In this document: one piece after another, positions 3 through 64,000 of the stretch | Layout of the letters: the number at the start of each line of letters is the position of its first letter | How positions within the stretch are numbered: position 1 is the first letter of the stretch | Source: Escherichia coli | GTDB lineage: Bacteria; Pseudomonadota; Gammaproteobacteria; Enterobacterales; Enterobacteriaceae | Assembly: GCF_030384885.1 (NCBI RefSeq) | Contig: NZ_CP128615.1 | Strand: one strand, 5' to 3' | Length of the DNA: 64,000 nt | Notes under the pieces: model-generated | The model's input: the letters and a program-made list of their open reading frames with translations, nothing else | What the model was told of the DNA's origin: nothing | Database searches by the model: none | Translations under genes and position numbers: made by a program

Positions 3-1565
3 ATGCCTCTGATCACGCGGCTTATGCTGCAAAACTTTAAAAAGTTTCCGGAACTGGACCTGCGCTTCACTCATGACCGTAACATTCTGGTCGGGGATAA
101 TGAGTCCGGGAAAAGCACGATTCTGCTGGCCCTTGACCTTGTGCTGAGCGACAGCCGGCACCGGGTCGAGGCATTGGGTGTGGAATCGCTCCTGTCCCAG
201 TCAGCAGTCAGGCAGTTTCAGGAAGGTGAGCGCCGCGCCGATCGGTTACCCGTGCTGACAGCTGATGTTTTCCTGAGTAATGGGGGAGATCCTGACCTGA
301 ACGGCAGGCAAAATCTGGCGGGTATCGATGCGGATGGTCTCAGAATGCGCATTGCACCCATGACGGAGGAATACGGTCAGGATATACATCATGTCCTGCA
401 GCAGGATCCCGATAATTTTCCCTATGAATACTATTCCGTGCGGTTCAGCACCTTCTCCGGGGGGCATTTTGCCGGCTTCAGACGCTATCTGCGCCATCTG
501 CTGTTAGACAGTGCACGCATCGATAACGAGCACGCCGCACAGGAATATACGCGCACAGTTTACAGCGTCAATGTGCCGGTAGCCGATCGGTACCGGCTTG
601 AAAACAGTTACCGGCAACAGAAAATGCACTTCTGCACCCGGCATCTGTCAGCCATAAACGACACGCTGGATACGTATCAGTTTGGCGTGCGTTCCGGTGC
701 TAAATCAGGTCTTGAGGCGAATCTGGACATTACCGAGGACGGTATTTCCATTCGTCACCGTGGAAAAGGAAGGCAGTGCTTCATCAAAACAGAGTTTGCA
801 CTGCAGCGGCATCAGCAGCAGGGAGAGCTCCACGCACTGTTGCTTGAGGAGCCGGAGAATCATCTCAGCCATGTCAGTATGAAGAGGCTGGTTAATCAGC
901 TTGCAACTGAACGGCAGACGCAGGTGTTTATTGCCACACACAGCAGCCATATCTCATCCCGCCTCGATCTGCGTAAGGCAATCCTCCTCGGGTCTGCCCG
1001 ACCGGTACTGATGAATGAACTTTCCGCTGAGACTGCCGCCTTCTTCATGAAAGCACCGGACAATAATGTGCTGGAATTTGCGCTGGCCAGACGTGTGCTG
1101 CTCGTGGAGGGGGATGCTGAGTTTATTCTGATCGAGGCCTTTTATCGCCGCCTGTATGGCAGGTCGCCGGAGGATGACGGGGTTCACATCATCGCTATCG
1201 GCGGAACGAGTTTCCGTCGTTATCTTGAACTGGCCCGTCTTCTGGAAAATCGCGTCGCGGCCCTTCGTGATAATGACGGCAACTATCAGCAAAACTGCGA
1301 TGAACGCTATGCTGACGTGCTTTGTTCCCGCTCCCGGGTATTTGCTGATCGCGATAACACCCGATCCACATTTGAAATCTGCCTGTATCAGGATAACGCT
1401 GGTCTGTGTGATGCGCTTTTCCGCGGAACACGCCGGACACTCACGGTGCAGGAATACATGCTGGCCAATAAGGCAGAAGCAGCATTCCGGCTGTTACAGC
1501 TGCACGCCGAAGAGCTGACAGTACCTGATTATATTCAGGAGGCACTGGCATGGATAAGAGAGTGA
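3..1565 (+). CDS. OLD-family ABC-type ATPase with C-terminal Toprim-like nuclease domain (GajA-like / class 1 OLD)
   Basis: 520-aa ORF; Walker A GDNESGKST, Walker B LLEEPE, C-terminal VLLVEGDAEF...RDNDGN Toprim-like motifs; stop overlaps start of downstream helicase gene. Confidence 0.75.
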   Translation: MPLITRLMLQNFKKFPELDLRFTHDRNILVGDNESGKSTILLALDLVLSDSRHRVEALGVESLLSQSAVRQFQEGERRADRLPVLTADVFLSNGGDPDLNGRQNLAGIDADGLRMRIAPMTEEYGQDIHHVLQQDPDNFPYEYYSVRFSTFSGGHFAGFRRYLRHLLLDSARIDNEHAAQEYTRTVYSVNVPVADRYRLENSYRQQKMHFCTRHLSAINDTLDTYQFGVRSGAKSGLEANLDITEDGISIRHRGKGRQCFIKTEFALQRHQQQGELHALLLEEPENHLSHVSMKRLVNQLATERQTQVFIATHSSHISSRLDLRKAILLGSARPVLMNELSAETAAFFMKAPDNNVLEFALARRVLLVEGDAEFILIEAFYRRLYGRSPEDDGVHIIAIGGTSFRRYLELARLLENRVAALRDNDGNYQQNCDERYADVLCSRSRVFADRDNTRSTFEICLYQDNAGLCDALFRGTRRTLTVQEYMLANKAEAAFRLLQLHAEELTVPDYIQEALAWIRE

Positions 1566-4567: not shown

Positions 4568-5941
4568 TAATAATGCCGATGTCAGTCTTTACCACCACTT
4601 AGTTTGCCGTTTAACCAGATTGGTGTGATTACTGATGCAGTGAAGACCTTCCCGCATCCTGACTCACACAGCGATCGACCTTTTGTGTCCTGCCCTGGAC
4701 CCGTCGGTTGCCGGAAGCGCCTTCATGCGAGGCATCTCCTCACCGATGCGCGTGACTCAAGAAGGGCCTGACGGCTTGTCTCGTTACTGTCCTGTCCGGG
4801 TTATCTGTCTGGAGATTCAACTCTGTTTCCTCACAGGAGCTCTGTCATGGTTGATAAAGTTACCGAAGCTGCCGTTGTGGGTGGCGTGGATACACATAAA
4901 GATTTGCACGTTGCCGCTGTCGTAGATCAGAACAATAAAGTCCTTGGGACTCAGTATTTCTCCACAACACGACAAGGTTACCGGCAGATGCTGGCATGGA
5001 TGACCTCGTTTGGGACATTAAAGCGAATTGGTGTTGAGTGCACAGGTACCTATGGTTCCGGTTTGCTTCGTTATTTTCAGAACGCCGGGTTAGAAGTTCT
5101 TGAGGTGACTGCTCCAGACCGGATGGAGCGACGCAAACGGGGTAAAAGTGACACAATTGATGCTGAATGTGCCGCTCATGCAGCATTCTCAGGCATCAGG
5201 ACAGTTACTCCCAAAACGCGTGATGGCATGATTGAGTCCCTGCGGGTATTAAAAACTTGCCGAAAAACAGCAATATCAGCCCGCAGAGTCGCTCTCCAGA
5301 TTATCCATTCAAATATTATCTCTGCCCCGGATGAATTACGTGAACAGCTCAGAAATATGACGCGCATGCAGCTCATCAGGACCCTGGGTTCCTGGAGACC
5401 TGATGCCAGTGAATACCGCAATGTAACCAACGTTTATCGCATTTCATTAAAGTCCCTTGCCCGACGCTATCTCGAGTTACATGACGAAATCGCTGATCTG
5501 GATGTCATGATTGCGGCAATTGTCGACGAGTTGGCACCTGAGCTGATTAAACGTAATGCTATCGGATACGAAAGCGCTTCACAGTTGCTGATCACTGCCG
5601 GAGACAATCCTCAACGGTTAAGATCAGAATCAGGATTTGCGGCACTGTGTGGTGTCAGCCCGGTCCCCGTTTCTTCTGGAAAAACGAACCGTTACCGACT
5701 TAATCGTGGTGGAGATCGTGCTGCAAATAGTGCACTTCACATCATCGCCATCGGACGCTTACGAACTGACGCAAAAACAAAGGAATATGTCGCCAGGCGT
5801 GTAGCCGAAGGACATACAAAAATGGAAGCGATACGCTGTCTAAAGCGATATATCTCCCGCGAAGTTTACACGTTACTGCGCAATCAAAACAGGCGGATCA
5901 ACAGTATCCCGATAACAGCTTGACTCTTAGAAGGGCGTCCA
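4568..5941 (+). mobile_element. IS110-family insertion sequence (about 1374 bp, no obvious terminal IRs)
   Basis: precisely interrupts the IS3 orfB codon run HSD|RGSQY (2-bp junction ambiguity); carries a DEDD-type transposase gene. Confidence 0.75.
4847..5923 (+). CDS. IS110-family (DEDD) transposase
   Basis: 358-aa ORF; N-terminal GVDTHKDLHVAAV, C-terminal ...NRGGDRAANSALHIIAIGRLR... typical of IS110 family. Confidence 0.85.
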   Translation: MVDKVTEAAVVGGVDTHKDLHVAAVVDQNNKVLGTQYFSTTRQGYRQMLAWMTSFGTLKRIGVECTGTYGSGLLRYFQNAGLEVLEVTAPDRMERRKRGKSDTIDAECAAHAAFSGIRTVTPKTRDGMIESLRVLKTCRKTAISARRVALQIIHSNIISAPDELREQLRNMTRMQLIRTLGSWRPDASEYRNVTNVYRISLKSLARRYLELHDEIADLDVMIAAIVDELAPELIKRNAIGYESASQLLITAGDNPQRLRSESGFAALCGVSPVPVSSGKTNRYRLNRGGDRAANSALHIIAIGRLRTDAKTKEYVARRVAEGHTKMEAIRCLKRYISREVYTLLRNQNRRINSIPITA

Positions 5942-25112: not shown

Positions 25113-25376
25113 ATGAAGAAGCGTTTTTCCGACGAACAGATCATCAGTATTCTCCGCGAAGCCGAAGCTGGGGTACCCGCCCGTGAACTCTGCCGCAAGC
25201 ATGCCATTTCCGATGCCACGTTTTACACCTGGCGTAAGAAGTATGGCGGTATGGAGGTGCCTGAAGTTAAGCGCCTGAAGTCGCTTGAGGAAGAGAACGC
25301 CAGACTCAAGAAGCTGCTTGCCGAAGCCATGCTGGATAAAGAGGCGCTTCAGGTGGCTCTTGGGCGAAAGTACTGA
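25113..25376 (+). CDS. IS3-family transposase OrfA
   Basis: 87-aa ORF MKKRFSDEQIISILREAEAGVPARELCRKHAISDATFYTWRKKYGG... Confidence 0.85.
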   Translation: MKKRFSDEQIISILREAEAGVPARELCRKHAISDATFYTWRKKYGGMEVPEVKRLKSLEEENARLKKLLAEAMLDKEALQVALGRKY

Positions 25377-25399
25377 CGACAGACCAGAAGCGGGAAGCC

Positions 25400-25624
25400 G
25401 TGATGCTGATGTGTGATGCGACCGGTCTGTCGCAACGTCGTGCCTGCAGGCTTACAGGTTTGTCCCTGTCGACCTGCCGCTATGAGGCTCACCGTCCGGC
25501 TGCTGATGCGCATTTATCAGGGCGCATCACTGAGCTGGCACTGGAGCGCAGGCGTTTTGGCTACCGTCGTATTTGGCAATTGCTGCGCCGTGAAGGGCTT
25601 CATGTTAATCATAAGCGCGTGTAG
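25400..25624 (+). pseudogene. IS3-family transposase OrfB, N-terminal fragment only
   Basis: 74-aa ORF ending at the truncation point. Confidence 0.7.
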
Positions 25625-47789: not shown

Positions 47790-49700
47790 TCTGGATTATC
47801 GTCACGCTGTTAAATATGTCGCGGTAGGGATACCCGTTACCGGATACCCCCCGCACAGATCCCGGCGTGCGCGATTTACGCACCGGGCTCCTGCCTCGGG
47901 TGTCTGGCGGTGAACCGCTCCACAGGCCATGGATGAAGAACCCGAACCCTTGGTAGCCATGCGGCTGCCAGTTTGTTTGCTTTCGTCCAGGTCGTATCAT
48001 CCTTCTGGCTCCTGCGCCTGAGCGCCCGGCGCCAGAGGTTTGTTACGTGTGTCCTGAACTTCTGCATGGTGGGGAAGTTGCCCGGTACCGAGTGATAGTT
48101 CAGGTATCCCTGAACCACTCTCCTGAGCCATTTTCCCTGTTCGGGGATTGAGTAATGCCAGCGCCTTCGCAGACCGTCTTTGATGGCTTTCAGAGTTGCC
48201 GTCATCCGATCCCGGCGGGTCTTTCGTATCAGCATGAACCTGCCGTTGCGATCTTTCCCGCTGATGTGCGTGAACCCGAGGAAGTTGAACGTTTCTGGTT
48301 TGCCTTTTCCCCTGATGGCACGGTTTTCGGCAGCGAAGCGGCCGAACTCCATCAGACGGGTTTTCTCCGGGTGAACCGTGAGTCCGAACTCCCTCAGTCT
48401 GCGCTGCATGGCTATACGGAAGCGCCGGGCATCGTATCGTTTGTCGAACCCGATGACGATGTCATCGGCGTATCTGACCATTACCACATTGCCTGTGGCA
48501 TAGCGACGTCGCCACTGATGCGCCCACAGATCGAAGACGTAGTGGAGGTATATGTTTGCCAGCAGCGGTGAGATGACCGCACCCTGTGGGGTGCCTTCCT
48601 CCGTTGCTCGCCATTGACCCTCCTCCAACGTCCCGGCTGTGAGCCACTTACGTATGAGCCTGATTACGCTCCGGTCGCCGATCCGATGCTCTGTGAACCT
48701 GATCAGCCATTCGTGGCTCACCCTGTCGAAGAACTGACTGATGTCGGCATCCAGTACCCAGTTTACGTTAGTGCGTACCAGCCCTGTGGCCAGTGCGTCC
48801 AGTGCATCGTGCTGGCTTCGCCCGGGTCTGAACCCGTATGAGAACCCCATAAAGTCGTTTTCATAGACTGCGTTCAGGATTTTCACCAGCGCATACTGGA
48901 CGATCTTGTCCTCCAGCGAGGCGATGCCGAGCGGGCGTTGTTTTCCATCCGCTTTTGGGATGTAGTGACGCCTGCCGGGCTGCGCCCTGTAGCTGCCCTA
49001 ATGTAGCCTCCGGTGCAGATCTGTTATGTTGTTCTTCATGTTTCCGGCGTAGTCCATCCACCTGATGCCATCCACTCCGGCGGCCGCTTTCCTGCTCAGG
49101 GAGAGGAATGCGGCTTCCAGTGCTTCGACTGTCAGCAGGTGGAACAATGCTGTAAACCGTTCTTTCTTCCGCTGCTTCGCAGCTTCCCGCACGCGTGACA
49201 GCCTCTGTGACATGCTTTCCCGGCTCTGTGTCCGGCGCATGTGTGGCTGTTCCGCGTTCCCCTTGGCCCCGCTCCTTCGCTCCACTGACTCCGCTCCTTT
49301 CGGGTTGTTCGCCTGCTTCGCCGCTACTATGAGCGAGTCCGACTTCTCCTCTCCGTACATCACCGGCTATGACTCCTCGTCTTCCCGGTGCGGGCCGTCT
49401 CCGACACTGGCAGATGGTCAGAGGGGAGATCTCCCGGTTCCCGCGTAGAGATCGTATTGACATGCCAGGGTCTCAGACCCCGCCGGGTCCATGTGGCACT
49501 CGCAGTATCGCACCCTATGATGTTGCCTTCCGTTAACAGTACAACGTCGGCACCCGGTAATTTAATATACATTTCGTGGCTCAATGGCTGGCCTGTCAAC
49601 ACCCCTGTCAACGCTTCGCCCCATACCTCGCGGTATGCAACGCATGACTCGGGGACCTTGTGGATTGCTGGTCCTTCAATGGTCGGGGACTTTCACCCCT
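47790..49700 (-). mobile_element. bacterial group II intron (boundaries approximate)
   Basis: intron-encoded RT/maturase ORF; domain V-like hairpin in the reverse complement of 47845-47880; 5' boundary not pinned. Confidence 0.6.
47876..49363 (-). pseudogene. group II intron reverse transcriptase/maturase, interrupted by one in-frame TAG
   Basis: two same-frame ORFs (48998-49363 and 47876-48886) separated by a TAG at 48998-49000; RT motifs ...GVDGIRWMDY..., ...FSYGFRPGRSQHDAL..., ...YADDIVIG... Confidence 0.75.
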
Positions 49701-52530: not shown

Positions 52531-53732
52531 ATACCTCCGTTAGTACGAATGAACTCGATGCGATCAAAGACTGCCTTCGCAAAGTCTTCCGCTGCTGATT
52601 TTGCGCTTTTTAGTGCCTCTGTACTTCCATCATAGGTTGCTGGATTTGCTGAAATAACTGTGTCAAAAGTCTCCCCACAACGTTCGAAACCATCCAGTCT
52701 TGGCAGAACCATGTCTAGCATATCGGCACCGAAAACCTCTTTGGCCTGACTATGGCAAATTTTGTGATCAGACTTGTTCAGGATCTTGGACATGAAGCCG
52801 ACATTACCGATGAGATTGCAGGTGTGCCCATCCATTTCGATGGAATCTATGAGGGCAGGGAGGCTGGCCACAAACTTCAGGGAAGAATGAAAATCAACCG
52901 TCGCCGGTGGAAGAGGGGTCAACATCAGGTCTGCCGCCCCAATGCAGTTTTTCAGGAACGCATCAAGGTGAGGACCACTATCAAGGAAAATAAAGTCGTA
53001 GTCATGCTGGAGCTTGTCGATAATGTTCTCTTTAAGCACCGCATGAATATTTTTCCCTGGCAGATGTTCTTCACACAATCCCTTCCAGCCTTCAGCAAGG
53101 AATGCATCGTCAATGGAAGCGGGGATTACATCAACACCAGGGATAATAGACGGTACTATAAAATCGGAAAGTAATTCTTCACGAGACACGTTCTGGAGCA
53201 TGGCCTGAGCAGCCGTATTTTCAACCAAGCCCACTGAATTCTCATGGCTCAGGAACATTGTCAGAGATGCCTGCGGATCGAAATCGATGGCCAGAATACG
53301 CAGGTCTTCGAACAGAAGCTGAGGATGAGCTCGAAAAGCATGTGATAATGAAGCGGTAGAAACTGTCTTGGAACCACCACCTTTAAGATTACATACAAAA
53401 ATCGTAAAGGCTTTATCGAAGCGATCCCTGTACTTCGGTACTTTACGATGGTTATACAGATCGATGACATTCTGAATCGTCATCGCGTATTTCATCGTAT
53501 TACCAGAAGGTTTCTTTTTAAAAATGTAGCCACCGGCTTCCATTTCGGACACAGCATACTCAACACTGCCTTTACTGAGCTTAGGCAGCTTATACAGAGC
53601 GGCTTTGCTGTATTCCTGATAGAACTCGGTAAGCTTCAATTCCTCTTTTTGCTGTCGGATACTTTCGCTCAAAGATGTCAGAAGCTTACCTGCACGTGTA
53701 GCGACTTTCCGTAACTGCTCAATATTGTCCAT
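52527..53732 (-). CDS. parA: ParA/SopA-family type Ia partition ATPase
   Basis: 401-aa ORF; deviant Walker A (CNLKGGGSKTVSTASL) after an N-terminal DNA-binding extension. Confidence 0.85.
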   Translation of the reverse strand: MDNIEQLRKVATRAGKLLTSLSESIRQQKEELKLTEFYQEYSKAALYKLPKLSKGSVEYAVSEMEAGGYIFKKKPSGNTMKYAMTIQNVIDLYNHRKVPKYRDRFDKAFTIFVCNLKGGGSKTVSTASLSHAFRAHPQLLFEDLRILAIDFDPQASLTMFLSHENSVGLVENTAAQAMLQNVSREELLSDFIVPSIIPGVDVIPASIDDAFLAEGWKGLCEEHLPGKNIHAVLKENIIDKLQHDYDFIFLDSGPHLDAFLKNCIGAADLMLTPLPPATVDFHSSLKFVASLPALIDSIEMDGHTCNLIGNVGFMSKILNKSDHKICHSQAKEVFGADMLDMVLPRLDGFERCGETFDTVISANPATYDGSTEALKSAKSAAEDFAKAVFDRIEFIRTNGGM

Positions 53733-54125
53733 TTATCACCTCATGACGTTTTTTGTCATTTTGAACAAAAAGTGTCATGTTGCAAGAAAAAAATCATATT
53801 GTTTTGATTTCGCTCTCAACAGAAGGGGGATGAAGCTCGACGGGCGTGCTACTAAATCACACTGCAGCAACACGCAGACGCACTTTTGACCATCAACAGC
53901 AACTCATACAAAAGGGCTTTGAGAAAGGTATTCAACTTGCAAGACAGGAGAGTCATTCAGAAGGATTCTGATTTTAGTTACGACCAGTGCAATGCTGAGC
54001 CTTATGTATCAGCGCTCGCCGCAGCCATGTAACCGAGCGTAGCGAGCGAACTGGCGAGGAAGCGAAGAGGAACCGTTCCGGCAGATAGCTCTTACGCTCA
54101 GCACAAGAAGAGTTTTCCATCCTCT

Positions 54126-54545
54126 GTGGGAAACAGGTCAACTTTAATGGACGCTCCGGACTATGGGAAACAGGTCAACTTCGCGGACGGCCCGGACTAT
54201 GGGAAACAGGTCAACTTCACGGGCGGCCGGGAGTGTGGGGAACAGGTCAACTTCGCGGACGGCCCGGATTATGGGAAACAGGTCAACTTCGCGGGCGGCC
54301 GGGACTGTGGGAAACAGGTCAACTTTGCAGACGGCCCGGACTGTGGGAAACAGGTCAACTTCGCGGGCGGCCGGGAGTGTGGGGAACAGGTCAACTTCGC
54401 GGACGGCCCGGACTAAGGGAAACAGGTCAGCTTCTCGGACGGCCCGGACTATGGGAAACAGGTCAACTTCTCGGACGGTCGGGAGTGTGGGAAACAGGTC
54501 AAGTTAGGCAAGCACTATGGGAAACACAGCAAGTTCAGTATCCCC
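54126..54545. repeat. tandem array of about 11-12 copies of a 36-bp repeat (putative repA iterons / copy-control array)
   Basis: unit TATGGGAAACAGGTCAACTTCGCGGACGGCCCGGAC; immediately downstream of repA. Confidence 0.7.
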
Positions 54546-54592: not shown

Positions 54593-55459
54593 CTATTGTT
54601 TTTTATCAAGAAAATTAAACAGCAAGCGACCATCTTCTTCAGTGGTATATGTTACCTTTAATGGCGTCTTCTCATTAATTTTCTTCAGAGCAGGTTCCAG
54701 GAAGGTACGCTTCATTTCAGCAATATTGTTTTTCTGCGAGGCAGGGAGCATAAACCTTTCACATAACCAGTCATGTGTGGTGATCCAGACACCAGTGCTC
54801 CGGAACTGACACAGGCTTTCATAAAGCCGGATGACACGAACACTATTAAGCTGGCCACAGTCATAGAGAGAATAGGTAGTGAACTGGGAGGTTAAGCCGA
54901 CCAGGAATGGCATGACCTTGTAGTTAAATTCAATCTGCCAGGAACCCCGGCCTCGCTTCATTCCTGCTTCAGCCAGCCACGGACGTTTAACTTCTTCAAA
55001 CTCACCTTCTTTTGGATAAAAGGTAACCGTTGATTCGCCCAGAGCATTTACCCCAGCCTTCACATCACGACTGGCGACAGACGTAGCGACATTGAAGTAT
55101 TTGACGTAATCGGAAACGCTGATTTTGAAGAGCGGCAATACGTCAGAGTCATCTTCCTGGCTGTCATTAAAATAGGCCTGCATGAGGCATAACCACAGCA
55201 CACGTTTTGCCTGAAGAGGCAGGTAATATGCAGCTTCGGTCAATTCGTTAGATTGCTTTATACTGGCGCGTTTTTTAAACGTTTTAGTAGCTGGCAAGAG
55301 TGCTTGAGTATCCATTTCAATGCCTATGGGTAAATTTTTACCCACCCATAATGACAGTGAAAACAGAAATTGCAAGCTATCGCGATACTTATCCACCGGA
55401 AAAATCTGCACTTTATCCACAAGTGGATAATTGAGAACTGAACTTGACCTCTTTCCCAT
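54593..55459 (-). CDS. repA: Rep_3-family replication initiator (RepFIB-type)
   Basis: 288-aa ORF; N-terminal IKQSNELTEAAYYLPLQAKRVLWL typical of Rep_3. Confidence 0.85.
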   Translation of the reverse strand: MGKRSSSVLNYPLVDKVQIFPVDKYRDSLQFLFSLSLWVGKNLPIGIEMDTQALLPATKTFKKRASIKQSNELTEAAYYLPLQAKRVLWLCLMQAYFNDSQEDDSDVLPLFKISVSDYVKYFNVATSVASRDVKAGVNALGESTVTFYPKEGEFEEVKRPWLAEAGMKRGRGSWQIEFNYKVMPFLVGLTSQFTTYSLYDCGQLNSVRVIRLYESLCQFRSTGVWITTHDWLCERFMLPASQKNNIAEMKRTFLEPALKKINEKTPLKVTYTTEEDGRLLFNFLDKKQ

Positions 55460-55700
55460 AGCTTGTTGATGCGTATCCCATAGCTTGTTGACACAAAACC
55501 CACTGATACGTGATTAATTTCCCATATTATGTTTACCAGTTGCCCATACAGGCCCCCTCTCAGGCCGCACTGTACGCGGCTTTCAGGCTCCCTAAAAGAT
55601 GTAAAATAAAGAAAAAGAATAAAAAAGTACTTTATAAAAATATGCCCGTGGATAAGTGGATAACCCCGAGGGGAGGTGATTTTTCAGGCATTGAGCGTAA
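55460..55700. other. putative oriV region (DnaA boxes, short direct repeats, AT-rich tract)
   Basis: TTATCCACA at 55414-55422, TGGATAAGTGGATAA near 55640, two copies of TCCCATAGCTTGTTGA at 55460-55500. Confidence 0.5.
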
Positions 55701-56221
55701 GCAGAATTTATAAGTTTTGTTCCCTGGTGCTTCCTCGCTCACTCGGGGCTTCGCCCTGTCGCTCGACTGCGGCGAGCACTGCTGGCTCGATCATATCCGT
55801 GGCCGGAAGATACTACTCCTCCCCCGAGTCGCTCTCCAGAGCCGGCTACAGCGAGACAACCCGCACGAAGATTTCTATCGTCCCTGCAGACATATTCGAA
55901 TCGTTTTTATTAACCCTGGCTTCCGTCGTGACAGAACACTACGTCCTGTAAAAGGGGGACTAAGGCCCCTGAATCACACACCTGAATAATGCGGAGTTTT
56001 ACGATAATGTCATTGCTGGAAACTTTCCTGACCGCTTCTCAGGGGGCAACAATCCTGTTCCTTGCCATGCTGATCTACTGGCAAAAGCGATAAATCCAAG
56101 CGGGCTGGCCTTTGGCCAGCTTCGCTGTATAAGGGGAAAAATGCGGCATATCCAGACATTTCACTAGGCAATTTGAATTCAGATATCTATGCTTGGGATC
56201 CGGTCAACAGGAGGTAACAAG

Positions 56222-61562: not shown

Positions 61563-61677
61563 AAATTTTCCTTGCACATCCATTTTTTTGCGAATATTAT
61601 TATTCCTGCTGAATATGATTCAATATCGCACGCTACTCATCCATCCCAGGATAATGAGTACATAGGTTGAAGTTTCA

Positions 61678-61705
61678 ACACCCCCATTACGGGGGTGTTT
61701 TTTTT
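61678..61705 (+). terminator. rho-independent terminator
   Basis: ACACCCCCATTACGGGGGTGT followed by T8. Confidence 0.7.
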
Positions 61706-63430: not shown

Positions 63431-64000
63431 CAGGATCCTGTCACTCTTTCGACCGACAGCTTATGGCATACAGTTGGGCTCGTAAGATCCAGAGTCAATA
63501 ACTGACAGGGTTTATTCTGTCATCCTCCGGCAACAAAGGCATATACGATATTCACTTATTTTGTCGGCCCAACGGCTTTTTACAGTAGCTCGTTTTGCCC
63601 AACTGATGCTACAGCTCTTTGGTTTGCTTCATCACGGATATCAGCTCCGACACAGGCACAGCTGACTGGTTGCAACGTCTGCACTTCTCTGGACCTGAAA
63701 CGTCAATTATCAGGATTCTGACGATTAGTCTTAAGACTGTCGGTAAATTAAGTGATGCCAGTTGTCAGGATATTCATGGAGCCAGTCTGCATGCGCCTCT
63801 GGCGTTGAGACAAACATATGAAGTGTATTTCGGATATGACTGTACGCTCAGGAAGTACGGCAGATTCCGTCAAAAATTACCTGTAAAGACAGACTTCAGA
63901 AAAAACAGTGCTCGCCGCAGACCGGTGACCGGGCGAAGCCCGCGAACCGGCGAGGAAGCGCAATATATCTGTAGTTACAGTGAGCAGGTACGCCCTGAAG

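Follow-up and report, generated by a model that had tools for sequence, protein, structure and literature searches.

An Escherichia coli plasmid sequence (contig NZ_CP128615.1) carries a GC-rich palindromic motif upstream of its parA gene, and the question that this locus raises is what kind of signal the motif represents. The window, by which we mean the whole stretch of DNA that was analysed (64,000 nucleotides), had previously been read by eye in a first-pass annotation, which described a bounded unit at this place and a related core near the end of the window, considered the motif to be unlike ERIC, and suggested either a shared regulatory site, for example for ParA autoregulation, or a small repetitive element. 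We consider it very probable (roughly 0.85) that the motif is a phiX174-type, PriA-dependent primosome assembly site of the sequence family to which the ssiA sites of ColE1/pBR322 and of the F plasmid belong. Such primosome assembly sites are also termed PriA-, protein n'- or factor Y-dependent sites and are abbreviated n'-pas or ssi. Direct support for the assignment comes from homology to named sites, from a conserved fold that covaries and is specific to one strand, and from a distribution that is restricted to plasmids and adjacent to origins; each of these points is presented below.

Three related copies of the element in the window

To locate the element independently of the window, we used an nhmmer profile that consists of the ColE1 site and the three F sites and includes no window sequence. 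In the 64-kb window, this profile matched three sites, termed A, B and C, with E values of about 1e-22 to 1e-24, and gave no fourth match up to E=10. The ColE1 sequence alone as query also recovered the three window sites, at 1.4e-6, 4.9e-6 and 0.02. Homology to experimentally defined members was therefore found by profile search for each of A, B and C. The sites and their predicted hairpins are as follows.

54000..54103, plus strand: site A, primosome-assembly-site-like element (nhmmer envelope 54000-54100, ColE1+F profile, E=4.6e-23)
54012..54065, plus strand: core irregular hairpin of site A with helices P1, P2 and P3 (alignment columns 35-91; covariation)
54037..54043, plus strand: GCGTAGC mini-hairpin with GNA triloop at the tip of site A (pattern kept in 37 of 41 family members)
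63894..63996, plus strand: site B (nhmmer, ColE1+F profile, E=8.6e-24)
63908-63961, plus strand: core hairpin of site B, with the tip CGGGC-GAA-GCCCG at 63930-63942
55692..55793, minus strand: site C, a third, inverted copy (11-mer search; nhmmer, ColE1+F profile, E=8.9e-22)
55779->55727, minus strand: core hairpin of site C, with the GCGAAGC mini-hairpin at 55754->55748

Site A is placed between the 36-bp iteron array of the IncR replicon and parA. Its plus-strand reading at 54012-54067 is GCGCTCGCCGCAGCCATGTAACCGAGCGTAGCGAGCGAACTGGCGAGGAAGCGAAG, and the core hairpin contains two invariant blocks, GCTCGCCGCAG at 54014-54024 and GCGAGGAAGCG at 54054-54064. Both 11-mers are present as exact matches in site B, at 63910-63920 and 63950-63960, within a core that reads GTGCTCGCCGCAGACCGGTGACCGGGCGAAGCCCGCGAACCGGCGAGGAAGCGCAA on the plus strand (63908-63963), and their spacing is 40 nt in both sites. 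The identity between A and B amounts to 79.3% over 58 core alignment columns and to 68.5% over about 95 columns. The annotation had proposed a related core at about 63905-63985 and named chance similarity as the point on which this would fall; with two exact 11-mers at equal spacing and the independent profile scores, the recurrence is confirmed, and by these scores A, B and C are related far above chance.

Both of the sites that had been claimed are real, but a third copy on the minus strand (55793-55692) had been missed. It was found by searching GCTCGCCGCAG and GCGAGGAAGCG, and its 11-mer pair spans 55777->55728. The bounded unit described at site A exists insofar as an 8-bp inverted repeat, TGCTGAGC (53993-54000) and GCTCAGCA (54096-54103), flanks this copy, but its left arm is absent in the 91%-identical F ortholog, and the repeat is therefore not a feature of the family. 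Terminal repeats conserved around the other copies were not seen in the alignments examined.

The copies flank the IncR and IncFIB replicons

Between 51.5 and 56 kb, the window is 100% identical to the IncR plasmid backbone, whereas the part from 61 to 64 kb matches IncFIB plasmids. The features of the IncR part that the argument requires are listed here.

53754..53791, no strand: 19-bp direct repeat (TGTCATGTTGCAACAAAAAG x2) adjoining parA (Tandem Repeats Finder)
54127..54502, no strand: IncR iteron array of 36 bp x 10.4 copies, downstream of repB (Tandem Repeats Finder)
54593..55459, minus strand: IncR repB, Rep_3 family initiator with WH1/WH2 (Pfam Rep3_N 1.8e-31, Rep3_C 2.4e-13; annotation of an identical record)
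55444..55663, minus strand: putative IncR origin core, between site C and repB (sequence reading and repeats)
55444-55502: 22-bp repeats of the putative origin (Tandem Repeats Finder)
about 55590-55640: AT-rich stretch of the putative origin (sequence reading)
55663->55648, minus strand: two tandem DnaA boxes, TTATCCAC (sequence reading)

Read along the minus strand, the order is site C, DnaA boxes, AT-rich stretch, 22-bp repeats, repB, 36-bp iterons, site A, 19-bp repeat, parA and parB. The IncR replicon is enclosed by C (minus strand) and A (plus strand), both of which face inward, and repB (55459->54593) as well as the iteron array (54502->54127) are inside this bracket. The 36-bp array has already been described (PMC9412624), and its position is equivalent to that of the incC iterons of F. 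Because the order of the parts matches the order published for F, namely ssiA, DnaA boxes, AT-rich region, iterons and repE (PMC4398462), 55444..55663 is probably the IncR origin core.

At the other end of the window, the FIB rep gene starts 417 bp past the window end, as seen in an identical record, and copy B is situated about 450 bp upstream of this gene and is oriented toward it. An origin-side location was thus found for A and C, at the IncR repB and its iterons, and for B, at the IncFIB rep.

Rfam matches elsewhere in the window comprised a group II intron (domain D1-D4; 49468-49693, minus strand, 186.6 bits), the counterpart of the retA intron known from IncR backbones, the UptR small RNA (61608-61699, plus strand, 123 bits with a gathering score of 100) upstream of the FIB replicon, and the IS1222 ribosomal frameshifting element (25343-25460, plus strand, 152 bits), which points to an insertion sequence of the IS3 family.

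Homology to the primosome assembly sites of ColE1 and F

The motif resembles the pBR322 sequence downstream of ori, and this resemblance was confirmed on ColE1 (NC_001371), in which the identical 11-mers occur at 1311-1321 and 1351-1361, again with a spacing of 40 nt. With ori placed according to the RNA II/ori sequence, these 11-mers lie about 110-160 nt downstream of ori on the RNA II-sense strand. A second ColE1 primosome site, ssiB, is located further downstream on the other strand; since the family profile returned a single site on ColE1, ssiB must belong to another sequence class.

The position of the ColE1 11-mers agrees with the published location of ssiA, or n'-pas, which becomes exposed as Pol I extends the RNA II primer and which recruits PriA (PMC3167613). 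PriA bound there leads to the start of lagging-strand synthesis by DnaB and DnaG (PMC3167613; for background, PMC5778457). The ssiA of ColE1/pBR322 and the window sites have in common GCTCGCCGCAG and GCGAGGAAGCG at 40 nt, the same hairpin, a GCGTAGC tip and the adjacency to an origin, and the core of the ColE1 site is 72-74% identical to those of A and C. The two settings differ in geometry: ColE1 ssiA lies downstream of an origin primed by RNA, is carried by the strand that Pol I displaces and faces away from the origin, whereas the window sites flank Rep_3 iteron origins and are directed toward them. In this comparison, which is one of sequences only, the window sites are oriented as the F copies are and opposite to the ColE1 site relative to the origin, and the ColE1 mode of exposure therefore does not transfer directly to IncR, FIA and FIB.

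The F plasmid has three copies, one upstream of ori2/repE, one inverted between incC and sopA, and one upstream of the RepFIB rep gene. Among these, the copy upstream of ori2 and repE is the published F ssiA (PMC4398462), and the F literature examined uses the name for this ori2-side copy only. Core identities are 96.6% between C and the ori2-side copy, 93.1% between A and the incC-sopA copy, and 98.3% between B and the RepFIB copy; judged by these values, C, A and B are orthologs of the three F copies. F RepFIA and IncR are also alike in the succession of ssi, DnaA boxes, AT-rich region, iterons, rep, control iterons, inverted ssi and parA/sopA, and they have the inward-facing pair in common, which in F brackets ori2-repE-incC. 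They differ in that the initiator and the iterons of IncR are its own and not those of FIA.

The similarity extends less far to other initiation signals. The prototype, the phiX174 complementary-strand origin in the F-G intergenic region, shares GAAGCG(G) and the GCGAAGC mini-hairpin with the plasmid sites and presumably relies on the same machinery of PriA, PriB, DnaT, DnaC, DnaB and DnaG. The overall similarity to phiX174 is not significant (family profile, best nhmmer E=0.26), and by this measure the plasmid sites form a sequence family of their own, apart from the prototype. The ssiA and ssiB sites of RSF1010 and the G-site of R1/R100 are alike in outline as origin-side hairpins of single-stranded DNA that direct priming, and those of RSF1010 form a pair in inverted orientation in which ssiA has a CCGAAGG mini-hairpin (PMC13037366, PMC8567376). 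This likeness is one of description; the sequences are unrelated, and these sites use the plasmid primase RepB' or DnaG directly instead of PriA.

A conserved, strand-specific hairpin

To collect the family, we scanned about 100,000 species genomes with a sequence pattern and filtered the matches with nhmmer, which left 41 distinct full-length members. They are found mostly on plasmids of Enterobacterales, including Enterobacter, Pantoea, Dickeya, Citrobacter, Xenorhabdus, Photorhabdus, Serratia, Erwinia and Yersinia. Chance matches in GC-rich genomes and vector contaminants were discarded. Short contigs in Mycolicibacter, Nitrolancea, Streptomyces, Cutibacterium and other assemblies contained sites identical to those of F or of ColE1/pUC-type vectors, and such contigs look like contamination of the assemblies with cloning vectors or E. 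coli plasmids.

RNAalifold and explicit pair counting over the 41 members supported an irregular hairpin of about 55 nt. Three helices make up this hairpin: the outer one, NNGCT/AGCNN, in which the conserved GAAGCGG takes part, one in the middle, and one at the tip that is closed by a GNA triloop. The covariation score of this fold was 0.265 compared to 0.127 in shuffles (0 of 500 reached 0.265) and at most 0.075 in slid-partner controls; it bears on the variable pairs and says nothing on those within the invariant blocks, which were fixed by the collecting pattern. Changes on both sides were observed at five pairs, 35-91 (15 times), 36-90 (8), 52-77 (13), 54-76 (16) and 62-69 (7). A first model with the stem CTCGC/GCGAG gave way to the outer helix NNGCT/AGCNN, which was favoured by RNAalifold as well as by the counts of covariation. 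Several GCGAG repeats are alternative partners for the 5' block, so that the details of the fold are provisional.

In the helix cells of the 41-member alignment, G.T occurred 18 times and A.C once. This ratio indicates that folding takes place in the aligned strand, which is plus for A and B and minus for C. Because the folding energies of the single strands were no better than those of shuffles for each site and both strands (z from -1.8 to +0.4), thermodynamics of single sequences was uninformative and the comparative analysis was used instead; the strand-specific hairpin is thus carried by covariation and by the G.T/A.C ratio, alongside unremarkable single-sequence energies and alternative pairings.

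In 37 of the 41 members the tip is GCGTAGC, GCGAAGC, GCGCAGC, GCGGAGC or GCGTTAGC, or one of the covariant forms ACGAAGT, CCGTAGG and ACGTTAGT. GCGNAGC/GCGNNAGC has been described as a mini-hairpin motif of DNA that is extremely stable, is poorly bound by SSB and occurs at priming origins (PMC13037366).

A TACGC block is located about 30 nt 3' of the hairpin (54093-54097, 63989-63993 and 55699->55695) and is conserved in nearly all 41 members. In copy A it could pair as GAGCGTA/TACGCTC, with GAGCGTA at 54035-54041. Across the family, no unique covarying partner for the block was found; four GCG sites can pair with it, and none of them shows distinctive covariation.

Distribution and gene neighbourhood

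Among 5426 complete E. coli genomes, we counted 6949 matches in 3603 genomes, corresponding to about two thirds. Plasmids accounted for 6875 of these matches (98.9%), and the remaining 74 were on chromosomes. The earlier view that the motif is unlike ERIC is in line with this plasmid-bound distribution, whereas the idea of a small repetitive element dispersed in enterobacterial genomes, for which these genomes served as the check, did not hold. In a sample of 40 RefSeq records, the place of the match was mostly unannotated, and in a few records it was overlapped only incidentally by a CDS labelled 'hypothetical protein' or 'rep protein'. The phage collection contained six matches, all weak and partial (E 4e-6 to 6e-4); five came from records between 1.4 and 5.3 kb in length, and the sixth from an Arsenophonus record of 33.6 kb.

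At the loci whose neighbouring genes we inspected, the copies keep fixed positions beside replication genes. In each of the eight Rep_3 replicons examined, the site precedes rep by a few hundred bp and is oriented toward this gene. Other arrangements were observed as well. A Photorhabdus contig has a copy at 1386-1481 (minus strand), about 700 bp downstream of an IncFII-type repA, and a Xenorhabdus contig has two copies, at 4688-4808 (minus strand) and 5731-5851 (plus strand), that are about 930 bp apart and face away from each other, one being directed to a Rep_3 gene and the other to an ArdC-N/DUF3560 gene. Several replicon types, in several geometries, thus make use of the family.

Alternative explanations

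The sites could be of the PriA type and yet serve mainly the synthesis of the complementary strand after entry of single-stranded DNA by mobilisation or conjugation, instead of vegetative replication. The presence of sites on both strands (A and C) means that either transferred strand has one, and IncR plasmids are typed as mobilisable. However, the sites are linked to rep and ori and not to oriT or a leading region, and this linkage is equally tight in contexts that are non-transferable. We consider a role primarily in transfer to be quite unlikely.

A structured RNA, such as a transcript stabiliser, an attenuator or a small RNA, would explain the covariation and the G.U-compatible changes as well as single-stranded DNA does. 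Against this, the Rfam scan at gathering thresholds gave no family at the sites, the hairpin is not followed by the T-run of a terminator, and the copies are found in differing transcriptional contexts. In addition, the homologous ColE1 site has been published as a primosome assembly site acting as DNA (PMC3167613), and the GCGNAGC tip has been described as a mini-hairpin of DNA (PMC13037366). We regard this explanation, an RNA signal instead of a DNA signal, as highly improbable.

The location of site A in the intergenic region between parA and the iterons, together with the orthologous F copy upstream of sopA, would fit an operator, that is, a double-stranded site at which ParA (or ParB) represses its own par operon. 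The core of site A is, however, 280-333 bp from the start of parA (start codon at 53732, minus strand), no promoter-like site was found in 53600-54200, and a separate 19-bp direct repeat, which is outside the primosome site, adjoins the gene; the repeat at 53754-53791 is a likelier candidate than site A for the operator or promoter element of parA. The element is also present in ColE1, which has no par gene in the PLSDB gene table, and in copies upstream of the IncFIB rep, the IncR repB and other Rep_3 genes that have no adjacent par operon. Finally, the G.T/A.C ratio of 18:1 indicates a fold of single-stranded DNA and not a duplex operator. With respect to both the position at a par promoter and the exclusive occurrence with par genes, the ParA/SopA operator of a type Ia partition operon fails, and we rejected it as extremely unlikely. 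From the suggestion of a shared regulatory site, what stands is a shared cis-acting site; ParA autoregulation does not, given the copies at ColE1, IncFIB rep and IncR repB.

Equally implausible is a small mobile or dispersed repeat (MITE, REP or ERIC-like) that landed at three places, for which three copies in 64 kb and the inverted repeat around copy A might speak, since the matches are almost entirely on plasmids, the positions relative to rep genes are conserved at the loci examined, and the flanking repeat is missing in the F ortholog with no conserved termini elsewhere, so that the many chromosomal copies and conserved terminal inverted repeats required of the ERIC/REP/MITE class are both lacking.

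Proposed mechanism

As a primosome assembly site, the element would act as DNA and not via a protein product. When the strand that carries it becomes single-stranded near the plasmid origin, about 55 nt would fold into the hairpin, the tip of which would be the GCGNAGC mini-hairpin. Recognition of this hairpin by PriA on SSB-coated DNA is expected from the analogy with ColE1, and on the same analogy A, B and C may each be bound by PriA. PriB, DnaT and DnaC would then load the DnaB helicase, and the DnaG primase would make primers. The outcome would be the start of discontinuous-strand synthesis or the reloading of a replisome at the site.

For the mode of strand exposure in iteron replicons and for the plasmid's dependence on the sites, we infer the following. 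The orientation toward the origin may mean that DnaB is loaded on the strand that would carry it through the origin and beyond. It is also compatible with an exposure of the site when forks come from outside toward the Rep-bound iterons, the site then being on their lagging-strand template. Iteron plasmids of the F type can be maintained in priA mutants, and the sites would therefore be auxiliary in iteron replicons. In pHW126-like plasmids, the ssi is dispensable and stabilising, and its loss results in a higher copy number and in multimers (bioRxiv 10.1101/2022.12.05.519187).

A further idea, which we put forward as speculative and rather improbable, is that the inward-facing pair of PriA sites at Rep_3 iteron replicons (IncR and F RepFIA) constitutes built-in restart stations and perhaps not an initiation device. 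Each site would then be on the would-be lagging-strand template of a fork that enters the Rep/DnaA-bound iterons from outside, and PriA would reload a replisome that has been stalled or dislodged by the nucleoprotein roadblock or by the handcuffed iterons of a silent second replicon.

Significance

This kind of signal has long been known, and the ori2-side copy of F already bears the name ssiA. The element is not listed in the IncR backbone descriptions examined (PMC9412624, PMC12310702), and the IncR and FIB copies therefore count, by their sequence relationship, as new, unannotated members of the family.

The practical value is mainly one of annotation, as the element is present in 3603 of 5426 complete E. 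coli genomes. Its recognition accounts for the conserved GC-rich islands that flank the IncR, FIA and FIB replicons and marks a cis-acting part that may matter for minimal replicons or curing cassettes. The inward-facing pair common to F and IncR poses a small question, namely how PriA sites serve iteron origins, and the restart reading, if true, would link the copy-control structures of plasmids to the restart pathway of the host.
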